NCBI GenBank assembly: GCA_964437445.1
Contig: CAYTGR010000013.1
Span: forward strand, 17,786 to 81,785
From: an uncultured Anaerolineales bacterium
GTDB taxonomy: Bacteria; Chloroflexota; Anaerolineae; B4-G1; SLSP01
Length of the DNA stretch: 64,000 bases
Direction of reading: 5' to 3'
The notes beneath the pieces are model-generated. The model had not been told where the DNA came from. It worked only from the letters and a program-made list of their open reading frames with translations, and did not search any database. Positions 8,108 to 61,127 of this stretch are shown here, in pieces. Numbering within the stretch: the stretch's first letter is position 1; each line of letters opens with the position of its first letter. The position numbers were made by a program, and so were the translations under genes.

Positions 8108-8191
8108 GGATATTTCCTTTCGTTTTCTAAAAAATAACGCTTTCACTGTAGATAGTATAACTTTCCCGCGGCCTGGAAGCAATTCAAAATG

Positions 8192-8217
8192 TGCTATAAT
8201 CTATTCCAGAATGGAAT
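8192..8217 (+). promoter_or_regulatory. Extended -10 promoter (TGcTATAAT) and 15-bp palindromic LysR box ATTCCAGAATGGAAT (T-N11-A)
   Basis: Perfect inverted repeat TTCCA-GAA-TGGAA about 30 nt upstream of the LysR start, in the divergent region between the LysR gene and the esterase/sugar operon. Confidence 0.5.
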
Positions 8218-8245
8218 AAGTCGGGGCAATGAATGGGGGGCAGAC

Positions 8246-9130
8246 ATGGAAGTTAAACAACTGGAATACTTCTTAAAGATTGTGGAAACGGGGAACTTCT
8301 CCATGGCGGCTGAGGAGCTGTATATTTCGCAATCTTCGCTTTCCAAGCAGATTATCGCCCTGGAAAAGGAACTGGGGTGCGCCTTGTTTGATCGCAGCAA
8401 GCGCCAAATCGCGCTGACCCCCGCCGGTGAAACCCTGCTGGGCCATGCCCGCGTCCTGGTGCAGGCCTCGCAGGCGCTGCTCTCCGACCTGGCCCAATAC
8501 AAGACTGTCCCGGCTTTAGCGATCGTGGCTATCCCGGTCATTGCCCAATATGGCATCCCGGCCTACCTGACCCGGTTCAGGCAGGCCTTTCCTGCGATCC
8601 AGGTGACCCTGGAAGAGCGCGAGGCCTCCGCCATCCTGCCGGCGCTGAGCAGCCACCAGTTTGATCTGGCTTTGCTCCGCGATAACTATCTGGATAAAAC
8701 CCAATATGCCTGCGTGGAAGTCGCCTGTGATAAGTTTCTGGTGGTGCTCTCCGACCAACACCGGTTGGCTACCCGCTCAACCCTCTCCCTGGCCGAGCTC
8801 GCTAACGAAAACTTCATCATGTTTGATAAAGGTACGGTGGTACACGAACTGGCAGTGGAGGCCTGCCGGCAGGCCGGATTTGAGCCGCGCATTTTCTATG
8901 CCAGCTTGCGGGTGGAAAGTATTCTCGGCCTGGTGGCCTCGCAGGCCGGGATTGCGCTGATGATGGAGAAGGTCTATGCCTATCATCAGCATCCTCATGT
9001 CCTGGCGCTCCCGCTGACCGAAACGATTGAGAGCCATCTTGTCCTGGCCTGGTTGAAGGACAAAAAACTCTCGCGCCCGGCCAGAAAGTTTGTGGCCTTT
9101 ATGGAAGAGGCGGTGACTGTTCAAGGTTGA
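8246..9130 (+). CDS. LysR-family transcriptional regulator
   Basis: N-terminal HTH (LEYFLKIVETGNFSMAAEELYISQSSLSKQI) plus a LysR substrate-binding domain. Start chosen at MEVKQ (GGGGGG RBS) rather than ORF-track start 8189. Confidence 0.9.
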   Translation: MEVKQLEYFLKIVETGNFSMAAEELYISQSSLSKQIIALEKELGCALFDRSKRQIALTPAGETLLGHARVLVQASQALLSDLAQYKTVPALAIVAIPVIAQYGIPAYLTRFRQAFPAIQVTLEEREASAILPALSSHQFDLALLRDNYLDKTQYACVEVACDKFLVVLSDQHRLATRSTLSLAELANENFIMFDKGTVVHELAVEACRQAGFEPRIFYASLRVESILGLVASQAGIALMMEKVYAYHQHPHVLALPLTETIESHLVLAWLKDKKLSRPARKFVAFMEEAVTVQG

Positions 9131-13037: not shown

Positions 13038-13190
13038 TGAGGTGATGGGCGAAAATCGAACCCTCAATTAAGACGGCGAACCAAAGTTCGCGTCACGTTG
13101 GCTACTGACTGGGCAACTAAGTGACTGCTTGATTGTTTGCCTTCAGAGGAATTCCCCATGGCCTGGCGTTCACACCAGCCGGGGGGATGA

Positions 13191-13285
13191 AAATGTGAGC
13201 TGTGAGCGGTGAACAGGAAACAGGAACTTCTACCTCCTGCTCTCTGCTCACTCCTTAACTGGTTTCTATTTTCAAAGGAGCTATT
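13191..13285 (+). repeat. Family B conserved leader element, copy 1, ending 6 nt before the start codon
   Basis: AAATGTGAGC(TGTGAGC)GGTGAACAGGAAACAGGAAC..CCTGCTCTCTGCTCAC..CTTAACTGGTTTCTATTTTCAAAGGAG. Near-identical to 55227..55322. Internal imperfect hairpin; contains TGTGAGCGG. Confidence 0.65.
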
Positions 13286-13291
13286 ATTATT

Positions 13292-14554
13292 ATGATGAAC
13301 GACATTCGGTTGTTATCCGATCCGGGTATCGTAGCCTACGTAGATATCGTCATCAATGCTTATCCGGGGTTCAAAATCGCCTCGGAGGAGGACCGGCAGC
13401 ATCTCATTGACCGGCTGGTGGATGTGCAGGCCAATGTCCCAACGGTGCACCTGTACGGCCTCTACCGGGACAACCAATTGTTGGGCGGGATGCGCCTGCA
13501 CGATTTCTGCATGAATATGCTGGGGGTTGAAATCGGTGCCGGCGGCGTGGGCATGGTCGCCGTGGACCTGGTGCACAAGAAGGAGCACGTGGCCCGCGAA
13601 CTGATCGTTTATTTCTTGCAGCACTACCGGCAGCAGGGCGTTACGCTGGCTCTGCTCTATCCCTTCAGGCCCGATTTTTATTACAGGATGGGTTTCGGCT
13701 ATGGCCCTAAGATCAGCCAGTACCGTTTCCAGCCGGCGGGCCTGCACGGGAACGCTTCCAAGGCGCGCGTGCGCTTCCTGACTGCCGACGATAAGCCGGC
13801 CCTGATGGAGTGCTACGACCGCTATCAGGCCCAGACGCACGGCATGATCGTGCGGTACCCGCCGGAGTGGGAGGGCTGGTTCAGAAACCTGGGTCTGGAT
13901 AATCGCATCGCAGGTTACGGGCCGGCGGGCCGGTTGGAGGGCTACCTCATCTTCGGCTTCAAGGCCCGGCCGGTGGATAGCCCGCTGCGTAACGATCTCA
14001 TCGTCAAGGAATTCGTCTATACCAGCCCCGCCGCGCTGAGCGAGTTGCTGGCCTTTCTGCATTCCCAGGCCGACCAGATCGACCGGATTGTGCTGACCAC
14101 GCACGACGAGAACTTCCACCACCTATTGGTGGACCCGCGCAACGAGTGCGAGGCGCTCATCCCTTCAGTTTACCACGAGAGCAACGTCCAGGGGGTGGGG
14201 CTGATGTACCGGGTGATTGACGTACCGGGATTGTTTGCCGCCCTGGCTGGCCATAACTTCAATGGGCAGACCTGCCGGCTGCGGTTGACCGTGCGCGATT
14301 CGCTTTTCCCGATCAATGCCGGGAGCACACTGCTCTATTTTGAACAGGGCCGCGTCAGCCTGCCGGCGACCGGCCCGCACGATGTGGAGATCACGCTAGA
14401 TATCGCCGAGTTCTCATCGTTAGTGGTCGGTGCGGTGGATTTCAAGCACCTCTACACCTACAATCTGGTGGAGATTTCCGACCCGGCCTATCTGCCTGTC
14501 GTCAATGCTATCTTTGCCGTGCCGGAGAAACCGGTCTGCCTGACGGCGTTCTGA
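13292..14554 (+). CDS. Eis-like GNAT acetyltransferase (N-terminal GNAT plus C-terminal SCP2-like domain architecture)
   Basis: 420 aa. Length and layout match the Eis/Acetyltransf_9+17+SCP2 family. AGGAG RBS. Confidence 0.55.
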   Translation: MMNDIRLLSDPGIVAYVDIVINAYPGFKIASEEDRQHLIDRLVDVQANVPTVHLYGLYRDNQLLGGMRLHDFCMNMLGVEIGAGGVGMVAVDLVHKKEHVARELIVYFLQHYRQQGVTLALLYPFRPDFYYRMGFGYGPKISQYRFQPAGLHGNASKARVRFLTADDKPALMECYDRYQAQTHGMIVRYPPEWEGWFRNLGLDNRIAGYGPAGRLEGYLIFGFKARPVDSPLRNDLIVKEFVYTSPAALSELLAFLHSQADQIDRIVLTTHDENFHHLLVDPRNECEALIPSVYHESNVQGVGLMYRVIDVPGLFAALAGHNFNGQTCRLRLTVRDSLFPINAGSTLLYFEQGRVSLPATGPHDVEITLDIAEFSSLVVGAVDFKHLYTYNLVEISDPAYLPVVNAIFAVPEKPVCLTAF

Positions 14555-24823: not shown

Positions 24824-27286
24824 ATGCACTTGCACCGTTCCCGCATCGTGTGCGCCCTGGTGGGGCTGGCGCTCCTCGGCGCGTTCTGGCTGTCCGGCGT
24901 CCGGCCGGGCTCCGGGCCGGTCCAGATCGCTCGCGCTCAGACCACCGGCGTCACGCCCACCGGCCTCCAGGACTATGAGCGCTGGGTGGGCTCGCTGCAT
25001 TCCCACGTCGGCATGGACGGTGACGATGGCGCGAATGGCTCCACCGCCGCGCAGGCCTTCGCCTACGCCCGCAACCTGCCCCATCTCCAGTATTTCGCCG
25101 TCAGCCCCCACCTGCACGCTTCCCGCAGCGGCGACGCCACCCTCTGGTATGAAAACACCTACGATACCCTCCGGGCGCAGGCGGCCGGCGCTACTACCGC
25201 CGACTTTGTGGCCGTGGCCGGGGTGGAGGTCGGTACAATCTCCAAAGGCGGCCACTGGAATCTCTTCAATGCCCAGGACCTGGTGGGACAGGATCATCCC
25301 GACGGTGACTGGAACGACGCCGATGACTACTACGATCATCTTGCCGGGCTGGGGGCTGCCAGGGAGCTGGTCGCGGCGCAATTCAACCATCCCAACACCA
25401 CTGACTTTGGCAACCGCTACGACGCCAATGCCGCGCCCTACGTTGGCACGCTCGCCGTCTCCAGCGGGCCGGCCTTCTCTGCTGCTACCGATTTCGGCGA
25501 CAGTGGCAGCAATTACGAATCGGTCTGGGCGCATTTCCTGAGTCTGGGCTGGAAACTGGCCCCGGCGGCCGATCAGGACAATCACAACGCCACATGGGGC
25601 GCCTCGTCCAGTGAGTACACCGTCATCGTGCGGCCCAAAGGGACGGCGTTGACGCCGGCCAACGTCGTGCAGGGGCTGCGGGAGCACATGACCTACGCCA
25701 CCGAGGATGCCAACCTGCAATTAGGCTTCATCGCCAACGGTTGGAGCATGGGGCAGACGATCGGCGGCAGCCCAAACGTGGCCTTCGTCGTCTGGTGGAA
25801 CAATCCCTCGGCTACGATTTACAATCTCAACAACAATACGGCCCGCGCTGAGGCCGCCAGTGACGCCATTCAGAATATCTGGCTCTACAAAAACGGCTTT
25901 AGCACGCCGGTAGCGAGCTACCAGCCGCGGACGGTAAGCGGGGCGTGGGCAGTTACCGTCACCGCCACGGCGGGGGACTGGTTCGTGGTCAAATTCCAGG
26001 ACAGCAGTACATTAGCGACCACTGGCCGGACAACCGACCTGGCCTGGTCGGCCCCGGTCTGGTACGATCCGGCGCACGCCGACGTACCGCTGACCGTCAA
26101 CGGGGCTGCCCCCGTGCCGGTGGCCGGGGTCGCCCTGAGCGGGCCGCTCAGCGGGACCGTGGGGGCGACTTCAGCCTTTACCGCCACAGTTACGCCGTTC
26201 TCGGCAACGTTGCCCATCACTTACGTCTGGGAGGCAGTTGGACAGGCTCCGCTCACCCACACCGGCGGCTTGAGCGATACGGCAATGTTGGCCTGGGGTA
26301 TGCCGGGGACCTACCCGGTGACGGTCACCGCGCGCAACGCGGCCGCCAGCGTCCAGGCCAGCCAGATTATGGTGGTCGTAGCACCTCCGGCCTCCACCGC
26401 CGTCGCTGTTGAGGGTGTCGCTCTGAGCGGGCCGCTCAGCGGGACCGTGGGGGCGACTTCAGCCTTTACCGCCACAGTTACGCCGTTCTCGGCAACGTTG
26501 CCCATCACTTACGTCTGGGAGGCAGTTGGACAGGCTCCGCTCACCCACACCGGCGGCTTGAGCGATACGGCAATGTTGGCCTGGGGTATGCCGGGGACCT
26601 ACCCGGTGACGGTCACCGCGCGCAACGCGGCCGCCAGCGTCCAGGCCAGCCAGATTATGGTGGTCGTAGCACCTCCGGCCTCCACCGCCGTCGCTGTTGA
26701 GGGTGTTGCCCTGAGCGGGCCGCTCAGCGGGACCGTGGGAAGCATGGCGACCTTCACGGCCACGGTCACGCCGCTTTCAGCGACGTTGCCTATCACCTAT
26801 GTCTGGGCGGTGACCGGGCAGCCGCCAATCACCTGCACCAACGAGGGGTTGACCAGCACCGTCACGTTCCCCTGGCTGCTGGCCAGGACCCAGGAGGTCA
26901 CCGTGACCGCGGTCAATATCCAGGGGAGCGCTACCGCGACACAACCGGTTTCAGTGACGGAGCCGGTGGCCGGGGTGGCCGTAGCCGGGATGTGGCTCAG
27001 CGGTCCCGGCCAGGTGCTGGTCGGAACCGGGGCCACGTTCACTGCCACGGTCACGCCGCCCGACGCAACCGTGCCGCTCACGTACACCTGGCAGGCCACC
27101 GGGCAACTGCCGGTCACGCACACGCACGCGCAACTGAGTGACACCGTCGCCTGGACGTGGGACACCCCTGGTATCCAGACGTTCACCGTGACCGTCCAGA
27201 ATATCGGCGGGCCGGTGGTCCAGGTCGCCGCCGTGACCGTGACCGCGCACACGCTCTATGTGCCGCTGGTCCTGGCGCAGTGGTAG
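24824..27286 (+). CDS. Secreted PHP-domain (CehA/McbA-like metallo-phosphoesterase) protein with four PKD/Ig-like repeats and the LPLV tail
   Basis: Signal peptide. PHP motifs LHSHVGMDGDDG and PHLHAS. Four ~96-aa repeats (..SGPLSGTVGATSAFTATVTP..PITYVW..). C-terminus ...HTLYVPLVLAQW. Start at 24824 (AGGAGG RBS). Confidence 0.65.
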   Translation: MHLHRSRIVCALVGLALLGAFWLSGVRPGSGPVQIARAQTTGVTPTGLQDYERWVGSLHSHVGMDGDDGANGSTAAQAFAYARNLPHLQYFAVSPHLHASRSGDATLWYENTYDTLRAQAAGATTADFVAVAGVEVGTISKGGHWNLFNAQDLVGQDHPDGDWNDADDYYDHLAGLGAARELVAAQFNHPNTTDFGNRYDANAAPYVGTLAVSSGPAFSAATDFGDSGSNYESVWAHFLSLGWKLAPAADQDNHNATWGASSSEYTVIVRPKGTALTPANVVQGLREHMTYATEDANLQLGFIANGWSMGQTIGGSPNVAFVVWWNNPSATIYNLNNNTARAEAASDAIQNIWLYKNGFSTPVASYQPRTVSGAWAVTVTATAGDWFVVKFQDSSTLATTGRTTDLAWSAPVWYDPAHADVPLTVNGAAPVPVAGVALSGPLSGTVGATSAFTATVTPFSATLPITYVWEAVGQAPLTHTGGLSDTAMLAWGMPGTYPVTVTARNAAASVQASQIMVVVAPPASTAVAVEGVALSGPLSGTVGATSAFTATVTPFSATLPITYVWEAVGQAPLTHTGGLSDTAMLAWGMPGTYPVTVTARNAAASVQASQIMVVVAPPASTAVAVEGVALSGPLSGTVGSMATFTATVTPLSATLPITYVWAVTGQPPITCTNEGLTSTVTFPWLLARTQEVTVTAVNIQGSATATQPVSVTEPVAGVAVAGMWLSGPGQVLVGTGATFTATVTPPDATVPLTYTWQATGQLPVTHTHAQLSDTVAWTWDTPGIQTFTVTVQNIGGPVVQVAAVTVTAHTLYVPLVLAQW
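26129..26704 (+). repeat. Two perfect 288-bp tandem copies encoding PKD-like repeats 1 and 2, with more diverged copies downstream
   Basis: The 288-nt block from 26129 is repeated base-for-base from 26417. A third copy from about 26705 and a fourth near 27000 are diverged. In frame (96 aa). Confidence 0.85.
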
Positions 27287-36374: not shown

Positions 36375-37634
36375 TTGAATCAAAAGGAGCAAAAGGAGAA
36401 GGAGATGTTTGACCAAACTGTAGCAACCGGGGCCGCGCCCCACATTGTGGTAGAAGAATGTTCAGGTAGCCTGGCCGTGCGGGGGACGGAAACCCGGCAA
36501 GTCCGTATCCGCATGTCGGGTGACGCCGAATCCAGCGCGCTGACCCAGGAAGGGGACGTCCTCACGTTCCGGGCGCCTGGAGATTGCCGTCTTACCTGCC
36601 CGCCTGGCACTATGCTGACCCTCAAAGCCGTGCGGGGGGACTTGCAGGTGCGCATGGTGCACGGGGCGATCACCGCAGGCCAGGTCAATGGTAGCGCCGA
36701 TTTGCGGGACGTCGGCTCGCTGGCCCTGGGACAGGTCTCTGGCGATTTGCGCGCGCGGGGTGTGGCCGGGGACGTGGTGGGACAAGGGGTGTCCGGCGAC
36801 GCCCGCGTCCGGGCGGTGGCCGGACAACTCACGCTGCACCAGGTCGGCGGCGACCTGCGGGCCGACGCTGTGCAGAAAGGGATCGCCGTGGAAGCTGTGA
36901 GCGGCGACGTGCGTTTAGGCCCGCCCTTTGCTCCGGGGGCTGCTTATCGCCTCAGCGCCGGCGGGGACCTGGTCGTCAGGCTGAATAGAGAGGCCAGCGT
37001 CCATTTTAAACTCCAGGCCAGGGGAAACGTTCAGGTGCGCGTCCCCAACCTGGCCCTGCAAGAGCAAGAGGGAGCGCTGGTAGGGGATTTAGGGACCGGC
37101 GAGGCGTTGCTGGAGGCCTCGGTCGGCGGGCGAGCCGTGCTCAAAGCGGGTGAGTTGGAGAGCGACGAGTTCCCTGAGTCCTACGATCTTGACCTGAGCG
37201 TCCTGGATGACCTTGGCCCGCTGGTTGAGGCGCGGGTCGCTGAGGCCATGGCTGACCTTAATCTGCGGCTGGAAAACGAGGGCTGGTTCATGGCCGATGA
37301 AGGCCGGTTGCGGCAGCGGGTGGAGCAGATTGCCGAACAGGCGGCCGAGCGCGCCCGTCAGGCCGCCGAACGGGAGGCCGAGCGGGCCCGCCGGGCGGCC
37401 GAACGGGAGGCCGAGCGGGCCCGTATCCAGGCGGAACAGGCTGAGCGGCGCTGGCAGCGGGCCAGTGGTCACCGGCCGGCCGCCCCGCCGACGCCACCGG
37501 CTCCTCCAGCTCCGCCGGCCTCTGCGACCGACACGATCACACGCGAGGAACGGCTGCGGGTGTTGCGGTTGGTGGAAGCGGGCCGGCTCACGCCCGAGGA
37601 GGCCTCCGATTTGATTGCAGCTCTGATGAGCTGA
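36375..37634 (+). CDS. DUF4097 (toast-rack/putative adhesin beta-strand repeat) protein with Ala/Glu/Arg coiled coil and C-terminal EERLRVLRLVEAGRLTPEEA motif
   Basis: Repeated V.GD.R motifs (VSGDLRARGVAGDVVGQGVSGDARVRAVAG), the AEREAERARRAAEREAERAR repeat, and a Pro-rich segment. Confidence 0.55.
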   Translation: MNQKEQKEKEMFDQTVATGAAPHIVVEECSGSLAVRGTETRQVRIRMSGDAESSALTQEGDVLTFRAPGDCRLTCPPGTMLTLKAVRGDLQVRMVHGAITAGQVNGSADLRDVGSLALGQVSGDLRARGVAGDVVGQGVSGDARVRAVAGQLTLHQVGGDLRADAVQKGIAVEAVSGDVRLGPPFAPGAAYRLSAGGDLVVRLNREASVHFKLQARGNVQVRVPNLALQEQEGALVGDLGTGEALLEASVGGRAVLKAGELESDEFPESYDLDLSVLDDLGPLVEARVAEAMADLNLRLENEGWFMADEGRLRQRVEQIAEQAAERARQAAEREAERARRAAEREAERARIQAEQAERRWQRASGHRPAAPPTPPAPPAPPASATDTITREERLRVLRLVEAGRLTPEEASDLIAALMS

Positions 37635-51649: not shown

Positions 51650-51735
51650 CCCGTTGAAACGGGACCGCAGACCGCGGACCACAGACCACGGACTTGAAAC
51701 CCGTGGTCTGTGGTCTGTCGTCTGTGGTCATCGCG
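51650..51735. repeat. Family C long palindrome built from GACCACR heptamers, copy 1
   Basis: GACCACAGACCACGGAC-TTGAAAC-CCGTGGTCTGTGGTC is a perfect 15-bp stem that extends imperfectly to about 30 bp. Sits between the helicase 3' end and the PK-like gene. Second copy at 57075..57160. Confidence 0.6.
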
Positions 51736-54964: not shown

Positions 54965-55103
54965 GCGGGGTATTGTAACCGGAATTGGATTTTGGACAAG
55001 AGGCCGGGTGGGGATACAATGGGGGAGAGCGGGAGAAGGTGAGAGCGGGAGAGGGTGAGAGCGGGAGAGCAGGAGAGCAGGAGAAGGGAAATAAAATAGG
55101 TGT

Positions 55104-55168
55104 GTAGTTTGTAGTGACGCGCTTTAGCGCGGCAAAACGGCACTGAGGCGCCTCACTACTACAAACAG
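55104..55168. repeat. Family A palindromic repeat, copy 2
   Basis: GTAGTTTGTAGTGACGCGCTTTAGCGCGGCAAAACGGCACTGAGGCGCCTCACTACTACAAAC. Lies in the divergent region between the helicase and GH13 genes. Confidence 0.6.
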
Positions 55169-55226
55169 AGCGCTATGTTCAAGGGAGGAGATTTCATCCT
55201 TTTACCTTCATCCTTCATCCTTTTTT

Positions 55227-55322
55227 CAAATGTGAGCGGTGAGCAGGAAACAGGAACTGCTACTTGCTGCTCTCTGCTCTCTGCTCTCTGCTCACTTCTT
55301 AACTGGTTTCTATTTTCAAGGG
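55227..55322 (+). repeat. Family B conserved leader element, copy 2, about 58 nt upstream of the GH13 start
   Basis: Near-identical to 13191..13285. Lacks the TGTGAGC duplication but has (CTGCTCT)4 versus 2 in copy 1. Followed by (TGCAACGC)3 at about 55335..55358 and a GGAGG RBS. Confidence 0.65.
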
Positions 55323-55379
55323 ATGAGATTCTGCTGCAACGCTGCAACGCTGCAACGCTTTTTTACTGGGAGGTATACC

Positions 55380-57071
55380 ATGAAACGCTTATCGCTGCTG
55401 GTTCTCTTGGGGGTTCTGACCGCTTGTGTGACCCCGACAACACCGGCTACACCGGCGCCCACCACGCCGCCGCCCGCACCGACCACCGCGGTGCCAACGG
55501 CGACGCTTACGCCGTCTCCCTCCACCGGCTGGTGGAACGACGCGGTCTTCTACGAAGTCTTTGTCCGCAGTTTTTACGATAGCAATGGCGATGGCATCGG
55601 TGATCTTCAGGGGCTGATCGCCAAACTGGATTATCTTAACGATGGCGATCCGCAGACCGACACCGATCTCGGCGTCACGGCGCTCTGGTTGATGCCGATC
55701 ATGGAGTCGCCCAGTTATCACGGCTACGATGTGGTGGATTACTACACCGTGGAACAGGACTACGGGACGAACGAGGATTTCAAGCAGCTGATCGCCGAGG
55801 CGCACCAACGGGGTATCCAGGTGATCGTGGACCTGGTCATCAACCACACCTCCAGCCAGAACCCCTGGTTCCTGGAAAGCGCGCGCGACCCCAACTCGCC
55901 CAAACGGGATTGGTACATTTGGAACCAGCAGGACCTCCAATTCCTTGGCCCCTGGAAGCAGGATGTCTGGTATGAGAAGAACGGCGCTTATTACTATGCG
56001 GTCTTCTGGTCGGAGATGCCCGATTTGAACTACCAGACGCCGGCTGTGACTAAGCAGATTTACGATGTGGCCCGCTACTGGCTCCAGGAGATGGATGCCG
56101 ACGGCTTCCGCATGGACGCGGTGCGCTACCTGGTGGAGGAGAATCTGCTGGAGAAGAATCGCCTGTTAGCCAGCAGCCCGGCCAATCTCCGGTGGCTCCA
56201 GGAGTTCCGGGACTATTGCGCCACGGTGGACCCAGAGGCGCTGACCATCGGCGAGGTCTGGACCGACACGCCCGAAGCCTCCCGTTACGTCAAGCAGGGG
56301 GCGCAAGACCTGGTCTTTGAGTTTGATCTGGCCGAGGATCTGTTGAGCAGCGTGATGATCGGCTCGCCCGGCAAGTTCCAGGCCACCCGCCAGGAGGTGC
56401 TGGCGAGCTATCCGCCGGGACAGTACGGCACTTTCCTGACCAACCACGATCAGAACCGCGTCATGAATGTGCTCCAGGGAGATCAGGACAAGGCCAAACT
56501 GGCCGCGGCGGCCTTGTTGACGCTCCCCGGTGTCCCCTTTATCTACTACGGCGAGGAGATCGGCATGGTGGGAGCCAAGCCCGATGAGCAGATCCGCACG
56601 CCGTTCCAGTGGTCAGCGGAGCCAGCGGCCGGCTTCACCACGGGGATGCCGTGGCAACCGGTCAACGCTGATTACGTTACCGTCAATGTGGCCGTGCAAC
56701 AGAAGGACCCGAATTCGTTGCTCAACACCTACCGCCAGCTGATCCACCTGCGGCAGGCGCACGCAGCCTTGCGCACCGGCTCGTTCACGGCGCTGAACAG
56801 CAGCAGCGGCCTGGTGGATGCCTTCCTGCGGGAGCAAGGGGACGACCGCCTGCTGGTGGCGCTCAATTTTGACGGGCAGCGCCAGGAGGGGGTGACGCTG
56901 TCGCTTGCGGGCGGCCCGCTGCCGGCCGGCACCTATGCCGTCACCAACGCGCTGACCGGCGCCGACCTGCCCGCGCTCAAAGTAGGCGAGGGAGGGCAGC
57001 TCAACGGCTACCGGCTGCCGCCTTTGGCTCCCCGCCAGGCGCTGATCGTGCTGCTGCGGCGGGTCTTCTGA
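55380..57071 (+). CDS. GH13 alpha-amylase-family lipoprotein (oligo-1,6-glucosidase/trehalose-synthase-like subfamily)
   Basis: Lipobox LLGVLTAC plus PT linker. Regions I-IV present: DLVINH, GFRMDAVRYL, EVWT, LTNHDQNR. Start at MKRLS (55380). Confidence 0.9.
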   Translation: MKRLSLLVLLGVLTACVTPTTPATPAPTTPPPAPTTAVPTATLTPSPSTGWWNDAVFYEVFVRSFYDSNGDGIGDLQGLIAKLDYLNDGDPQTDTDLGVTALWLMPIMESPSYHGYDVVDYYTVEQDYGTNEDFKQLIAEAHQRGIQVIVDLVINHTSSQNPWFLESARDPNSPKRDWYIWNQQDLQFLGPWKQDVWYEKNGAYYYAVFWSEMPDLNYQTPAVTKQIYDVARYWLQEMDADGFRMDAVRYLVEENLLEKNRLLASSPANLRWLQEFRDYCATVDPEALTIGEVWTDTPEASRYVKQGAQDLVFEFDLAEDLLSSVMIGSPGKFQATRQEVLASYPPGQYGTFLTNHDQNRVMNVLQGDQDKAKLAAAALLTLPGVPFIYYGEEIGMVGAKPDEQIRTPFQWSAEPAAGFTTGMPWQPVNADYVTVNVAVQQKDPNSLLNTYRQLIHLRQAHAALRTGSFTALNSSSGLVDAFLREQGDDRLLVALNFDGQRQEGVTLSLAGGPLPAGTYAVTNALTGADLPALKVGEGGQLNGYRLPPLAPRQALIVLLRRVF

Positions 57072-57074
57072 GCT

Positions 57075-57160
57075 GGACCACGGACAACAGACCACAGACC
57101 ACAGACCACGGACAACAGACCACGGACCACCCGTGATGGAGTGTGGTCCGTGGTCTGACC
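57075..57160. repeat. Family C heptamer-based palindrome, copy 2
   Basis: GACCACGGACAACAGACCACAGACCACAGACCACGGACAACAGACCACGGACCAC-loop-GTGGTCCGTGGTCTG. Lies between convergent GH13 and H+-PPase genes. Confidence 0.6.
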
Positions 57161-57250
57161 TGTCGGGAGTCAGGCGCTTGAGCGCTATCCCACCCGCTGA
57201 AGCGCGTTACAACAAACTGTTATCGGCTGTCTGTCGTCCGTGGTCGGTGG

Positions 57251-60229: not shown

Positions 60230-60353
60230 ATCTCAGGCATTATAACGCATTTTGCGATAATTCCAAGCGAGCGCCAGGGCGGGCCTCCTGCCGGCGTTTG
60301 CGGCGCTTGTTTTCTATGCTATATTGTGCCCTGGCGCTGCTATTTACGAAGAT

Positions 60354-60412
60354 AGGTTTGTCGTGCGGCGCTTTAGCGCGGTCAAGACGGCGTTAAAGCG
60401 CCGCACTACGAA
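60354..60412. repeat. Family A palindromic repeat, copy 3 (best-formed hairpin)
   Basis: GTGCGGCGCTTTAGCGC-GGTCAAGACG-GCGTTAAAGCGCCGCAC gives a 16/17-bp stem, flanked by GGTTTGTC and TACGAACA as in the other copies. Confidence 0.6.
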
Positions 60413-60432
60413 CAATTACCGGGAGGTTAACG

Positions 60433-61127
60433 ATGAGGTATTTATCCGTTCTCTGTGCGTTGACCTTTACTATTCTTATCCTTTCGGCTTGTGGGCCATC
60501 TCAACCCGGCTCCCCCACGGTCTCGCCGACTACACCGCCGGTTTCGCCTACGGCCACGGCTATGCCGCCTACACCGACTCCTACGCCGCCTCCGCCGCCC
60601 CCCACGCCAACCGCCACAGCGGTCATCCCTTCTCCCACACCTTCTCCCACGCCGTTTACCACCTCAGGCTGGTCTACCACTGCCTCAACCCGCACCGAGT
60701 TGAGTTTTGCTTTCCCCGGCCACTGGGATGGGTCTTCTCCGCTTACCTTTGGCGAGGGTGAATTCGTCAAAGACCCCAAGCAAGCGATAGGGGTGACGTT
60801 CCAAATCAAGCTGAGCGGGCGGCCGGCGGCGCTTTTAAATGCCTGGGGGGCTAAGACCGTTGGTATCGTGGGCATCGTCACCTTTGCCCCGGAATCCGTG
60901 ACCGATGGCCCTGCGGTTACTATTGCGCGCCTGGAGGTGCCGACGAAAATCGCGCAAGGGAATGGGATGACGGCTCAGGTGGCCTATGTTCAGCTGAGGT
61001 GGCTTTTGTGCCGAACAAGAACCGGGTGCTGGAATTCATCACTTATGCGCCCTCGGCCACCTGGACTGAGGCCAATCAGGTGGCTTTCAGACATTTGTTG
61101 GGCCTGATGATAGACATCCGGCCGTAG
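60433..61127 (+). pseudogene. Pro/Thr-linker lipoprotein gene interrupted by an apparent -1 frameshift at about 60994 (20-bp imperfect tandem duplication)
   Basis: Frame 1 reads lipobox LILSAC, a PT-rich linker, ..MTAQVAYV, then junk to 61107. Frame 0 from about 60993 reads AEVAFVPNKNRVLEFITYAPSATWTEANQVAFRHLLGLMIDIRP* (stop 61125..61127). GCTCAGGTGGCCTATGTTCA and GCTGAGGTGGCTTTTGTGCC are adjacent. Confidence 0.5.

Follow-up and report, generated by a model that had tools for sequence, protein, structure and literature searches.

A candidate portable leader and ribosome-binding-site cassette among the dispersed intergenic repeats of an uncultured Anaerolineae bacterium

The subject of this analysis is a sequence of about 95 nt, here called module B, which occurs twice, upstream of unrelated genes, in a 64,000-nt stretch of DNA from an uncultured Anaerolineales bacterium (contig CAYTGR010000013.1; the whole stretch is referred to as the window). 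B is a recently inserted, multicopy and polar repeat with the potential to form a hairpin; it drifts almost neutrally, and its position relative to start codons and to a promoter-like site is clear. The explanation we favour, and consider reasonably probable, is that B is a portable 5'-leader and ribosome-binding-site (RBS) cassette, one module in a set of lineage-specific dispersed repeats of uncultured Anaerolineae and close relatives. In kind it resembles the 'putative mobile promoters', BOX or REP, and represents a new family within a known class of elements.

According to this explanation, copies of B would have been inserted in sense orientation into transcribed leaders and intercistronic spacers. 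Since the 3' end of B lies 5-10 nt from the start codon in most copies, the Shine-Dalgarno (SD) sequence of the element would serve as the RBS of the gene, and from this arrangement we infer that B is co-transcribed and that its SD is functional. Any effect on expression would be generic and post-transcriptional: the stable upstream hairpin could protect the 5' end of the mRNA, affect its processing or insulate it, the A/U-rich tract could act as a ribosome-landing site, the strong SD could load ribosomes, and slippage among the heptamers could alter the length of the hairpin stem. Such effects on stability or translation are suggested by the sequence, and a regulatory function of B is unproven.

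Module B in the window and in a related metagenome

Copy 1 (13191-13285, + strand) ends 6 nt ahead of the ATG at 13292 of a 420-aa Eis-like GNAT protein (13292..14554, +; Pfam Acetyltransf_9, Acetyltransf_17 and SCP2_2), and copy 2 (55227-55322, +) ends 58 nt ahead of the ATG at 55380 of a GH13 lipoprotein (Pfam Alpha-amylase). The original prediction, made from the sequence alone, had described two near-identical copies here, on this strand and at 6 nt and about 58 nt from the two ATGs; the distances are correct, and the repeat search in the window recovered the pair as two blocks, one of 55 nt at 89% identity and the other of 43 nt at 95%. Two core words of B, a 22-mer and a 26-mer, each occur exactly twice in the 64-kb window, against 0 expected from shuffles. 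The upstream neighbours are non-homologous, being a 229-aa protein without a Pfam match for copy 1 and a ResIII helicase for copy 2. The parts of the two copies are as follows.

13202-13216, + strand: 5' arm of copy 1, GTGAGCGGTGAACAG
13237-13251, + strand: 3' arm of copy 1, CTGCTCTCTGCTCAC, forming a hairpin with the 5' arm in the minimum free energy and centroid structures
13252-13275, + strand: U-rich tail of copy 1
13275-13280, + strand: own SD of copy 1, AAGGAG (nhmmer score of the copy, 120.6 bits)
13283..13291, + strand: (ATT)3 spacer between this SD and the Eis-like ATG, missing from a 97% strain (L064)
55232-55246, + strand: 5' arm of copy 2
55267-55280, + strand: extra CTGCTCT units of copy 2
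55281-55295, + strand: 3' arm of copy 2
55296-55319, + strand: tail of copy 2
55320-55323, + strand: degenerate SD of copy 2, GGGA
55368..55382, + strand: start of the GH13 gene, with SD GGGAGG at 55368-55373 and the ATG at 55380, an SD-to-ATG arrangement comparable in orthologues

The copies differ mostly by indels of heptamer units, and every difference listed in the original prediction is present in their sequences: there is an additional TGTGAGC in copy 1, CTGCTCT is repeated about 2 times in copy 1 versus 3.9 times in copy 2, and a (GCTGCAAC)3.4 array lies 3' of copy 2. The additional TGTGAGC had been called a duplication; the unit is indeed extra, but the family norm is about three GTGAGCN units and it is copy 2 that lost one. 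Similarly, the extent given for copy 1 is right in its coordinates but not as a 5' limit, because a conserved module, H, at 13141-13193 extends the element upstream.

The consensus of B in our alignment A2 reads AAATGTGAGCnGTGAGCGGTGAGCAGGAAACAGGAACTTCTACCTGCTGCTCTCTGCTCAC TCCTTAACTGGTTTCTATTTTCAA GGGAGG. Its arms are inverted heptamer arrays, (GTGAGCN)2-3 ... (CTGCTCT/CTGCTCAC)2-4, placed around GGAAACAGGAAC and a loop, and the unit number varies among paralogous copies in both of them (2-3 in the 5' arm, 2-4 or more in the 3' arm). The arms form an imperfect hairpin of about 15 bp which is predicted in all six copies folded, as was anticipated from the complementary GTGAGC and GCTCAC ends. 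The 3' part is a U-rich tail, TCCTTAACTGGTTTCTATTTTCAA, ending in the element's own SD, RGGAG(G). Pairwise identity among the paralogues averages about 86% (70-98%).

To count the family we scanned metagenomes with the 19-mer AACTGGTTTCTATTTTCAA, which lies in the tail of B beside the SD. The scan gave 14 contigs with the entire element, all from a single metagenome, Ga0067045, and when these copies were made into a hidden Markov model, it recovered from the same Ga0067045 loci another three that are more diverged. The total is therefore 19 copies, 2 in the window and 17 in the Ga0067045 loci. A start codon of a long open reading frame (ORF) follows TTTTCAA by 11-25 nt in 12 of the 19; among copies with the exact 19-mer the count is 11 of 16, and L021a, which lacks the 19-mer, brings it to 12/19. 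Four others (copy 2, L022, L051+ and L058) are sense-upstream at 58-180 nt, three (L025, L046 and L051-) face the 3' end of a convergent gene, and none is inside a gene. About 16 of the 19 copies are thus sense-upstream of a gene. The genes led by B are unrelated (Eis-like GNAT, glmS-like, aldo-keto-reductase-like, asparagine-synthase-like, lipoproteins and others) and have no common function. The same-strand leader in fixed register with the RBS that was originally proposed is accordingly recurrent, at the 11-25 nt spacing, but it does not describe the three copies that are not 5' of an ORF. Copies without an adjacent ORF keep RGGAG after TTTTCAA, and so the SD is part of the element. In the L058 locus, an FMN riboswitch (RF00050, 114.5 bits; L058 170-302) lies about 60 nt 3' of B, and a TTGTCA-N16-TATACT promoter-like site, read by eye, lies between the two, which places this copy of B ahead of the promoter and outside the leader.

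The scan of the genome collection with the 19-mer gave 16 single, unrelated chance matches, the source species being outside the GTDB representatives scanned, and the sole Chloroflexota match (L016) contains no other part of B. No member of the family was found in the viral, plasmid and phage collections, where one viral match is the 19-mer in unrelated sequence. Exact matches to the window proteins themselves are present in JGI metagenome 3300022666 and Logan run SRR6476076. The contigs of the latter end inside B, as is expected for a repeat, and Logan short-read contigs from four sample sets (first 20-50 nt of L018, L020, L064-L066, L077, L078) start within the B tail, 40-100 nt before the start codon. 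Homologues of the GH13, Eis-like and glmS genes carry source labels of Anaerolineae or Chloroflexota. One Logan series (SRR19214159, SRR19214160, SRR19214163) contains 97% orthologues of both the window Eis-like gene and the Ga0067045 glmS gene, from which we take the Ga0067045 organism to be closely related to that of the window. Apart from the repeats, no synteny was found between the window and the Ga0067045 loci. We had considered that B might be unusually conserved between the two metagenomes, and dropped the idea because of the close relatedness of the two genomes.

Insertion at orthologous loci and the surrounding repeats

At the GH13 locus, the 88% orthologue (L061) has the same divergent helicase neighbour, but the spacer is 97 nt long and free of repeats, compared with 415 nt in the window. 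The sequence from the helicase start codon to TACAAT is mostly conserved between the two, and the whole mosaic in the window is inserted between the conserved promoter-like site and the RBS, starting right after the -10 box. The features of this mosaic, and the module next to copy 1, are listed here.

54993..55020, + strand: promoter-like site TGGACA-16-TACAAT, conserved in the 88% orthologous locus L061
55023..55087, + strand: octamer array (GGGAGAGC) of about 8 units, with which the inserted mosaic at GH13 opens
55107..55186, + strand: module R, a REP/REPIN-like palindrome GTAGTGACGCGCTTTAGCGCG...GGCGCCTCACTAC with the 3' end TATGTTCAAGGGAG
55187..55226, + strand: module S, a TTCATCC heptamer array of about 4 copies, joining R to B
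55333..55359, + strand: (GCTGCAAC)3.4 array, which is single-copy TGCTGCAACGCTG in the 81% orthologue L062 (L062 74-87)
13141..13193, + strand: module H, a CCCCATGGCCTGGCGTTCACACCAGCCGGGGGG hairpin followed by ATGAAAA (nhmmer match 13141-13200, E=1.7e-7)

The octamer array starts 3 nt after the -10-like TACAAT and is absent from L061; in this position it would be the very 5' end of the GH13 leader. Being downstream of a conserved promoter-like site, B at GH13 is probably transcribed as part of the 5' untranslated region (5'UTR). Of the cis-regulatory leader module proposed in the original prediction, the leader probably stands at this locus, while its identity as a riboswitch or operator does not. 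The (GCTGCAAC)3.4 array is a local tandem expansion of native leader sequence.

At the other loci, the Eis-like orthologues with 72% and 65% protein identity and the glmS orthologue with 80% have no B upstream. Absence from orthologous loci in relatives, which the original prediction had named as evidence against its reading, is thus seen at 88, 80, 72 and 65% protein identity, and modules B, R and H do not occur in 138 kb of other Anaerolineae loci. These comparisons show B to be an insertion and not an ancestral leader. We also considered whether the B tail was derived from the ancestral Eis-like leader, and rejected this: the 12/13 match to L067 is not significant (15/300 shuffles are equal). 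Strains at 97%, on the other hand, retain B at both the Eis-like and the glmS locus. In the Eis-like case, the 47 nt upstream retained in the contigs are B tail with 3 substitutions and no (ATT)3, and with (ATT)3 gone (L064, 1-47) the SD lies 3 nt from the start, or 6 nt if the second ATG is used, where the window has 11 nt. In the glmS case, the retained 46 nt upstream are B tail, identical to the Ga0067045 copy at 41 of 46 positions. The third-codon positions of these 97% strain pairs are 84% (glmS) and 89.5% (Eis-like) identical. Orthologous B tails thus drift at about the synonymous rate, and the primary sequence of B is only weakly constrained.

B is one module in a set of mosaic intergenic repeats, and its usual 5' neighbour is module H or module S. 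Module H is also 5' of B in L029, L039, L046, L051, L055, L058 and L059. Module R, with a GTAG...CTAC foot (GTAGTGACGCGC...GCGCCTCACTAC), is often found further upstream of B; it has many copies in the Ga0067045 loci and lies in the window, as GTAGTGACGCGCTTTAGCGCG ... CGCTAAAGCGCCTCACTAC, at 710-767, 55107-55186 and 60349-60415, with a weak copy at 57160-57216. R and B both end in TATTTTCARRGGAG, which recurs where modules join and hints at a preferred target or a recombination joint. In copy 2, the 16-nt direct repeat TTCAAGGGAKGAGATT stands on both sides of S+B, where no empty/filled pair resolves the junction. The intergenic DNA of the lineage consists of nested mosaics of these modules and other 7- and 8-nt arrays. 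The original prediction had set B apart from a MITE (a miniature transposable element with inverted repeats). Its absence from orthologues, the three copies that are not 5' of a gene and the embedding in mosaics make this wrong in spirit: B is a dispersed inserted repeat among other repeats, though with a strong bias of position towards the RBS.

Two observations concern single modules. The R copy at 60357-60415 ends 7 nt 5' of an SD, GGGAGG, of a lipoprotein-like gene starting at 60434. Module H in the window contains a mini-ORF of 10 codons, MAWRSHQPGG* (13158-13190), with an SD-like AGAGGA ahead of it and a stop that overlaps the ATGAAAATGTGA start-stop. As a leader peptide (MxWRSPAGG*) it is open in five copies, with one in-frame 3-nt difference, but it is lost, truncated or without an ATG in L029, L051(-), L059 and all H' variants. 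It is therefore probably incidental, and we rejected it.

Alternative explanations

The main rival is that B is a purely selfish, non-autonomous mobile repeat of the MITE, REP or PATE-like sort without function, its position being due to a preference for SD-like or U-rich targets near the RBS (TTTTCAARGGAG) or to better tolerance of insertions there. We regard this as the less probable account. In its favour, B shows presence/absence polymorphism among relatives, is nested with R, H, S and heptamer arrays, and is accompanied by TATTTTCARRGGAG at the module joints and by the 16-nt repeat around S+B; the divergence of its orthologous copies is close to the synonymous rate, three members of the family are found where convergent genes end, and the native RBS of the 72% Eis-like orthologue, TTTCCAAAGGAGC, is close to the end of B. 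However, the parasitic BOX, RUP and SPRITE repeats are enriched between convergent genes and not right in front of start codons (PMC3049150), whereas about 16/19 copies of B are sense-upstream, B has no terminal inverted repeats and no empty/filled pair that gives a target duplication at the nucleotide level, and the similarity of the L067 RBS lacks significance, since an equal score came up in 15 of 300 shuffles.

Several points weigh against the cassette explanation. The presence of B in mRNA would follow from one conserved promoter-like site, at GH13 only; upstream of copy 1, the search for a sense-strand promoter gave nothing convincing. The near-synonymous drift also fits a purely selfish or neutral repeat. 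No terminal inverted repeats, clean target-site duplication or transposase were identified, the window ORFs not having been screened for transposases. Because the 19-mer query sits in the tail, intact, RBS-adjacent copies may be over-sampled, and only 3 of the 19 copies were found independently of it. The three convergent-facing copies and L058 indicate that use as a cassette is not universal.

A stronger version of the cassette explanation is that B is a mobile translation-initiation cassette homing to RBSs, so that unrelated genes, twelve or more in number, would come under a single post-transcriptional control, exerted by an RNA-binding factor common to them that recognises the GGA-rich hairpin, or by temperature- or structure-dependent occlusion of the SD. 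We consider this doubtful. The corresponding regulon, in which B would bind one trans factor (a CsrA-like, S1 or Csp-type protein, or a small RNA) or occlude the SD in the manner of a thermometer, is improbable on the present evidence. In its favour, GGA motifs (CAGGAAACAGGAAC) are conserved on the hairpin and a further GGA is in the SD; CUCCUU and GGUUUCU of the tail are both able to pair with the SD, and the fold of copy 1 pairs UGGUUUCU with AGGAGCUA; and heptamers just 5' of many unrelated start codons were proposed as translational regulator sites elsewhere (PMC4679880). But the two alternative SD-occluding helices pair no better than slid controls and appear in none of the centroid structures of L059, L042 and L021, the tail differs at 5/46 positions between 97% strains, the CUCCUU box included, and the downstream genes have no functional theme.

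The hairpin itself does better in the same kind of comparison, its pairing being possible in 92% of the alignment cells compared with 30-62% in slid controls. The original prediction had suggested an Rfam scan and a covariation analysis. In the former, no match reached the gathering score in the window, and there was only noise at E<=10 over both copies. In the latter, 0 of 19 pairs had changes on both sides and the observed value was not above shuffles, with variation too low to judge selection on the hairpin structure.

A phase-variable or tunable leader, in which slippage in the heptamer, ATT or GCTGCAAC arrays would switch or tune genes, seems quite improbable. The heptamer number differs between paralogues (5' arm 2-3, 3' arm 2-4 or more), (ATT)3 is present in the window and missing in a 97% strain, (GCTGCAAC)3 has grown from single-copy sequence, and a published account (PMC12721329) provides a precedent of 5'UTR simple-sequence repeats acting through RNA structure. 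On the other side, no heptamer variation was seen at the same locus: the JGI contigs of sample 3300022666 equal the window over the upstream regions read, and a comparison of heptamer number between strains is impossible because short-read contigs break within the repeat. The arrays are also short (2-4 units) and lie outside reading frames and outside the spacers between -35 and -10 of promoters.

The weakest alternative is an operator for a LacI/GntR-type repressor, or a riboswitch or attenuator, and it is hardly credible, although B has a hairpin in a leader position and contains the 9-mer TGTGAGCGG, which is identical to the core of lacO1. The 9-mer occurs 3 times in the window versus 0.93 expected, a number reached by 7 of 100 shuffles; it arises from two adjacent heptamer units, and most family members read AGTGAGCGG instead. 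It has no inverted partner at operator spacing, as a LacI-family palindrome, of about 16-21 bp with two half-sites, would have. The lacO likeness noted in the original prediction is thus a chance-level, non-palindromic match which the family does not keep. The riboswitch or attenuator fares no better, with no Rfam match at E<=10, no double-sided covariation, no terminator-like U-tract and no copy at orthologous loci. Riboswitch paralogues usually conserve structure, not sequence, unlike the paralogues of B, which are about 86% identical (70-98%). No intrinsic terminator or U-tract site was found at B on the sense strand in any region scanned, and a scan for sigma-70-like promoters, other promoter types being outside its coverage, found no such site in the sense strand of modules R, H, S and B.

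Known elements and the wider repeat repertoire

Among the closest known families are the putative mobile promoters (PMPs) of Matus-Garcia, Nijveen and van Passel (2012, PMC3488235), which are similar sequences of 50-100+ nt at >=80% identity ahead of non-homologous coding sequences; in the family of Treponema brennaborense, for example, conservation spans about -5 to -120, counted from the start codon (PMC3488235). B has the same geometry, and likewise a strain- or lineage-specific distribution and non-homologous upstream neighbours. Set beside the PMP alignment threshold (>50 nt, >=80%), its blocks are 55 nt at 89% and 43 nt at 95%, with a family mean of 86%, and its flanking coding sequences are non-homologous on both sides (GNAT versus GH13 downstream, the protein without a Pfam match versus the helicase upstream). 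B is therefore a PMP by the operational definition of PMC3488235. It differs in that no promoter-like site was found within it and it brings the gene a leader and an RBS, the promoter-like site at GH13 being upstream of the mosaic, and in its heptamer-array architecture.

The BOX elements of Streptococcus pneumoniae (boxA-boxB(n)-boxC; Croucher et al. 2011, PMC3049150) resemble B in being modular and lineage-restricted with variable internal subunits. They form a stem-loop when transcribed, are often co-transcribed as UTR and have no known dedicated transposase (PMC3049150). There is no sequence relation, however; BOX is over-represented between convergent genes and supplies no RBS, whereas B is mostly sense-oriented right before start codons, and the variable subunits of B are 7 nt long and not internal modules of the boxB type. 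The BIMEs, REP and REPIN of proteobacteria are also mosaics of a palindromic unit and short motifs, and the neighbouring module R, a GTAG...CTAC palindrome doublet, looks REP/REPIN-like; their hairpins in transcripts can stabilise or attenuate mRNA. Different from these, B has no GTAG/CTAC foot and is longer, asymmetric (hairpin, single-stranded tail and SD) and strongly polar.

The Correia elements (CREE/NEMIS, Neisseria) and ERIC (enterobacteria) are dispersed repeats of 5'UTRs and operons as well, with co-transcribed hairpins that affect mRNA processing or expression. They belong to the classical MITEs, which have inverted repeats at their termini, and Correia also has TA target duplications. 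B has no such termini, since its ends, AAATGTGAGC... and ...TATTTTCAAGGGAG, are not inverted and its heptamer arrays are internal, and it shows no clean target duplication. What it has in common with MITEs is presence/absence polymorphism at orthologous sites. The TAACTGA heptamer repeats of Beggiatoaceae, Cyanobacteria and Bacteroidetes (MacGregor 2015, PMC4679880) lie mostly a few nt upstream of unrelated start codons. A translational role was proposed for them and is unproven, and canonical RBSs are rare beside the repeats in the BOGUAY genome (PMC4679880). These repeats and the cyanobacterial STRR heptamer arrays are like B in that heptamers are abundant between genes, and the window also has GACCACA, TTCATCC and other 7-nt arrays. 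B, however, differs from a simple direct array: its size is fixed at about 95 nt, its arrays are inverted and form a hairpin, and it has a unique tail as well as a canonical SD. Strong polarity, the canonical SD and the heptamer-array hairpin set B apart from BOX, BIME, Correia-type and heptamer repeats. By analogy, B may work like the transcribed repeats of the BOX, BIME or Correia type (PMC3049150).

The main value of these results is in correct annotation and in a candidate case, found in nature, of a repeat family that supplies RBSs. In this genome of an uncultured Anaerolineae, what look like regulatory leaders shared between genes have arisen by recent insertion of a dispersed repeat, and recognising them guards against annotation as riboswitches or operators. 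B also accounts for the breaks that short-read assemblies of this lineage show directly 5' of many genes. If the SD of the element is used, B would be a clear natural case of a repeat family replacing or supplying the RBSs of unrelated genes; this would bear on the evolution of expression signals and offer a natural 'insulated RBS' part. If the homing cassette were true, a regulon would have been built by a repeat element and not by point evolution of each leader.

Other repeats in the same DNA are worth recording. Inverted heptamer arrays of GACCACA/GACCACG forming long hairpins are found in the window at 51663-51729 (- strand context) and 57076-57150. The former comes directly after the helicase stop, about 40 nt before the SD and ATG of the next minus-strand gene (Pfam PK, pyruvate kinase), and the latter directly after the GH13 stop, where two genes converge. 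Hairpins made of heptamer arrays are general in the intergenic DNA of this genome. Two of the Ga0067045 loci (L025 ~8130-8356 and L051 ~1860-2040) have in common a composite repeat of more than 200 nt, made of a second palindrome GGGTAGTGACGCCTTTAGGCG...CGCCTGAAGGCGTTACTAC followed by GACCGAATTATTTTCTCAAAGATCAT and half an R module; the repertoire of repeats thus goes beyond the modules R, H, S and B in both size and nesting. Finally, the window contains tandem repeats of 288 bp at 26109-26810 (2.4 copies, 94% matches) and of 33 bp at 37332-37424 (2.8 copies), whose in-frame periods suggest that they may be repeated protein domains or motifs.

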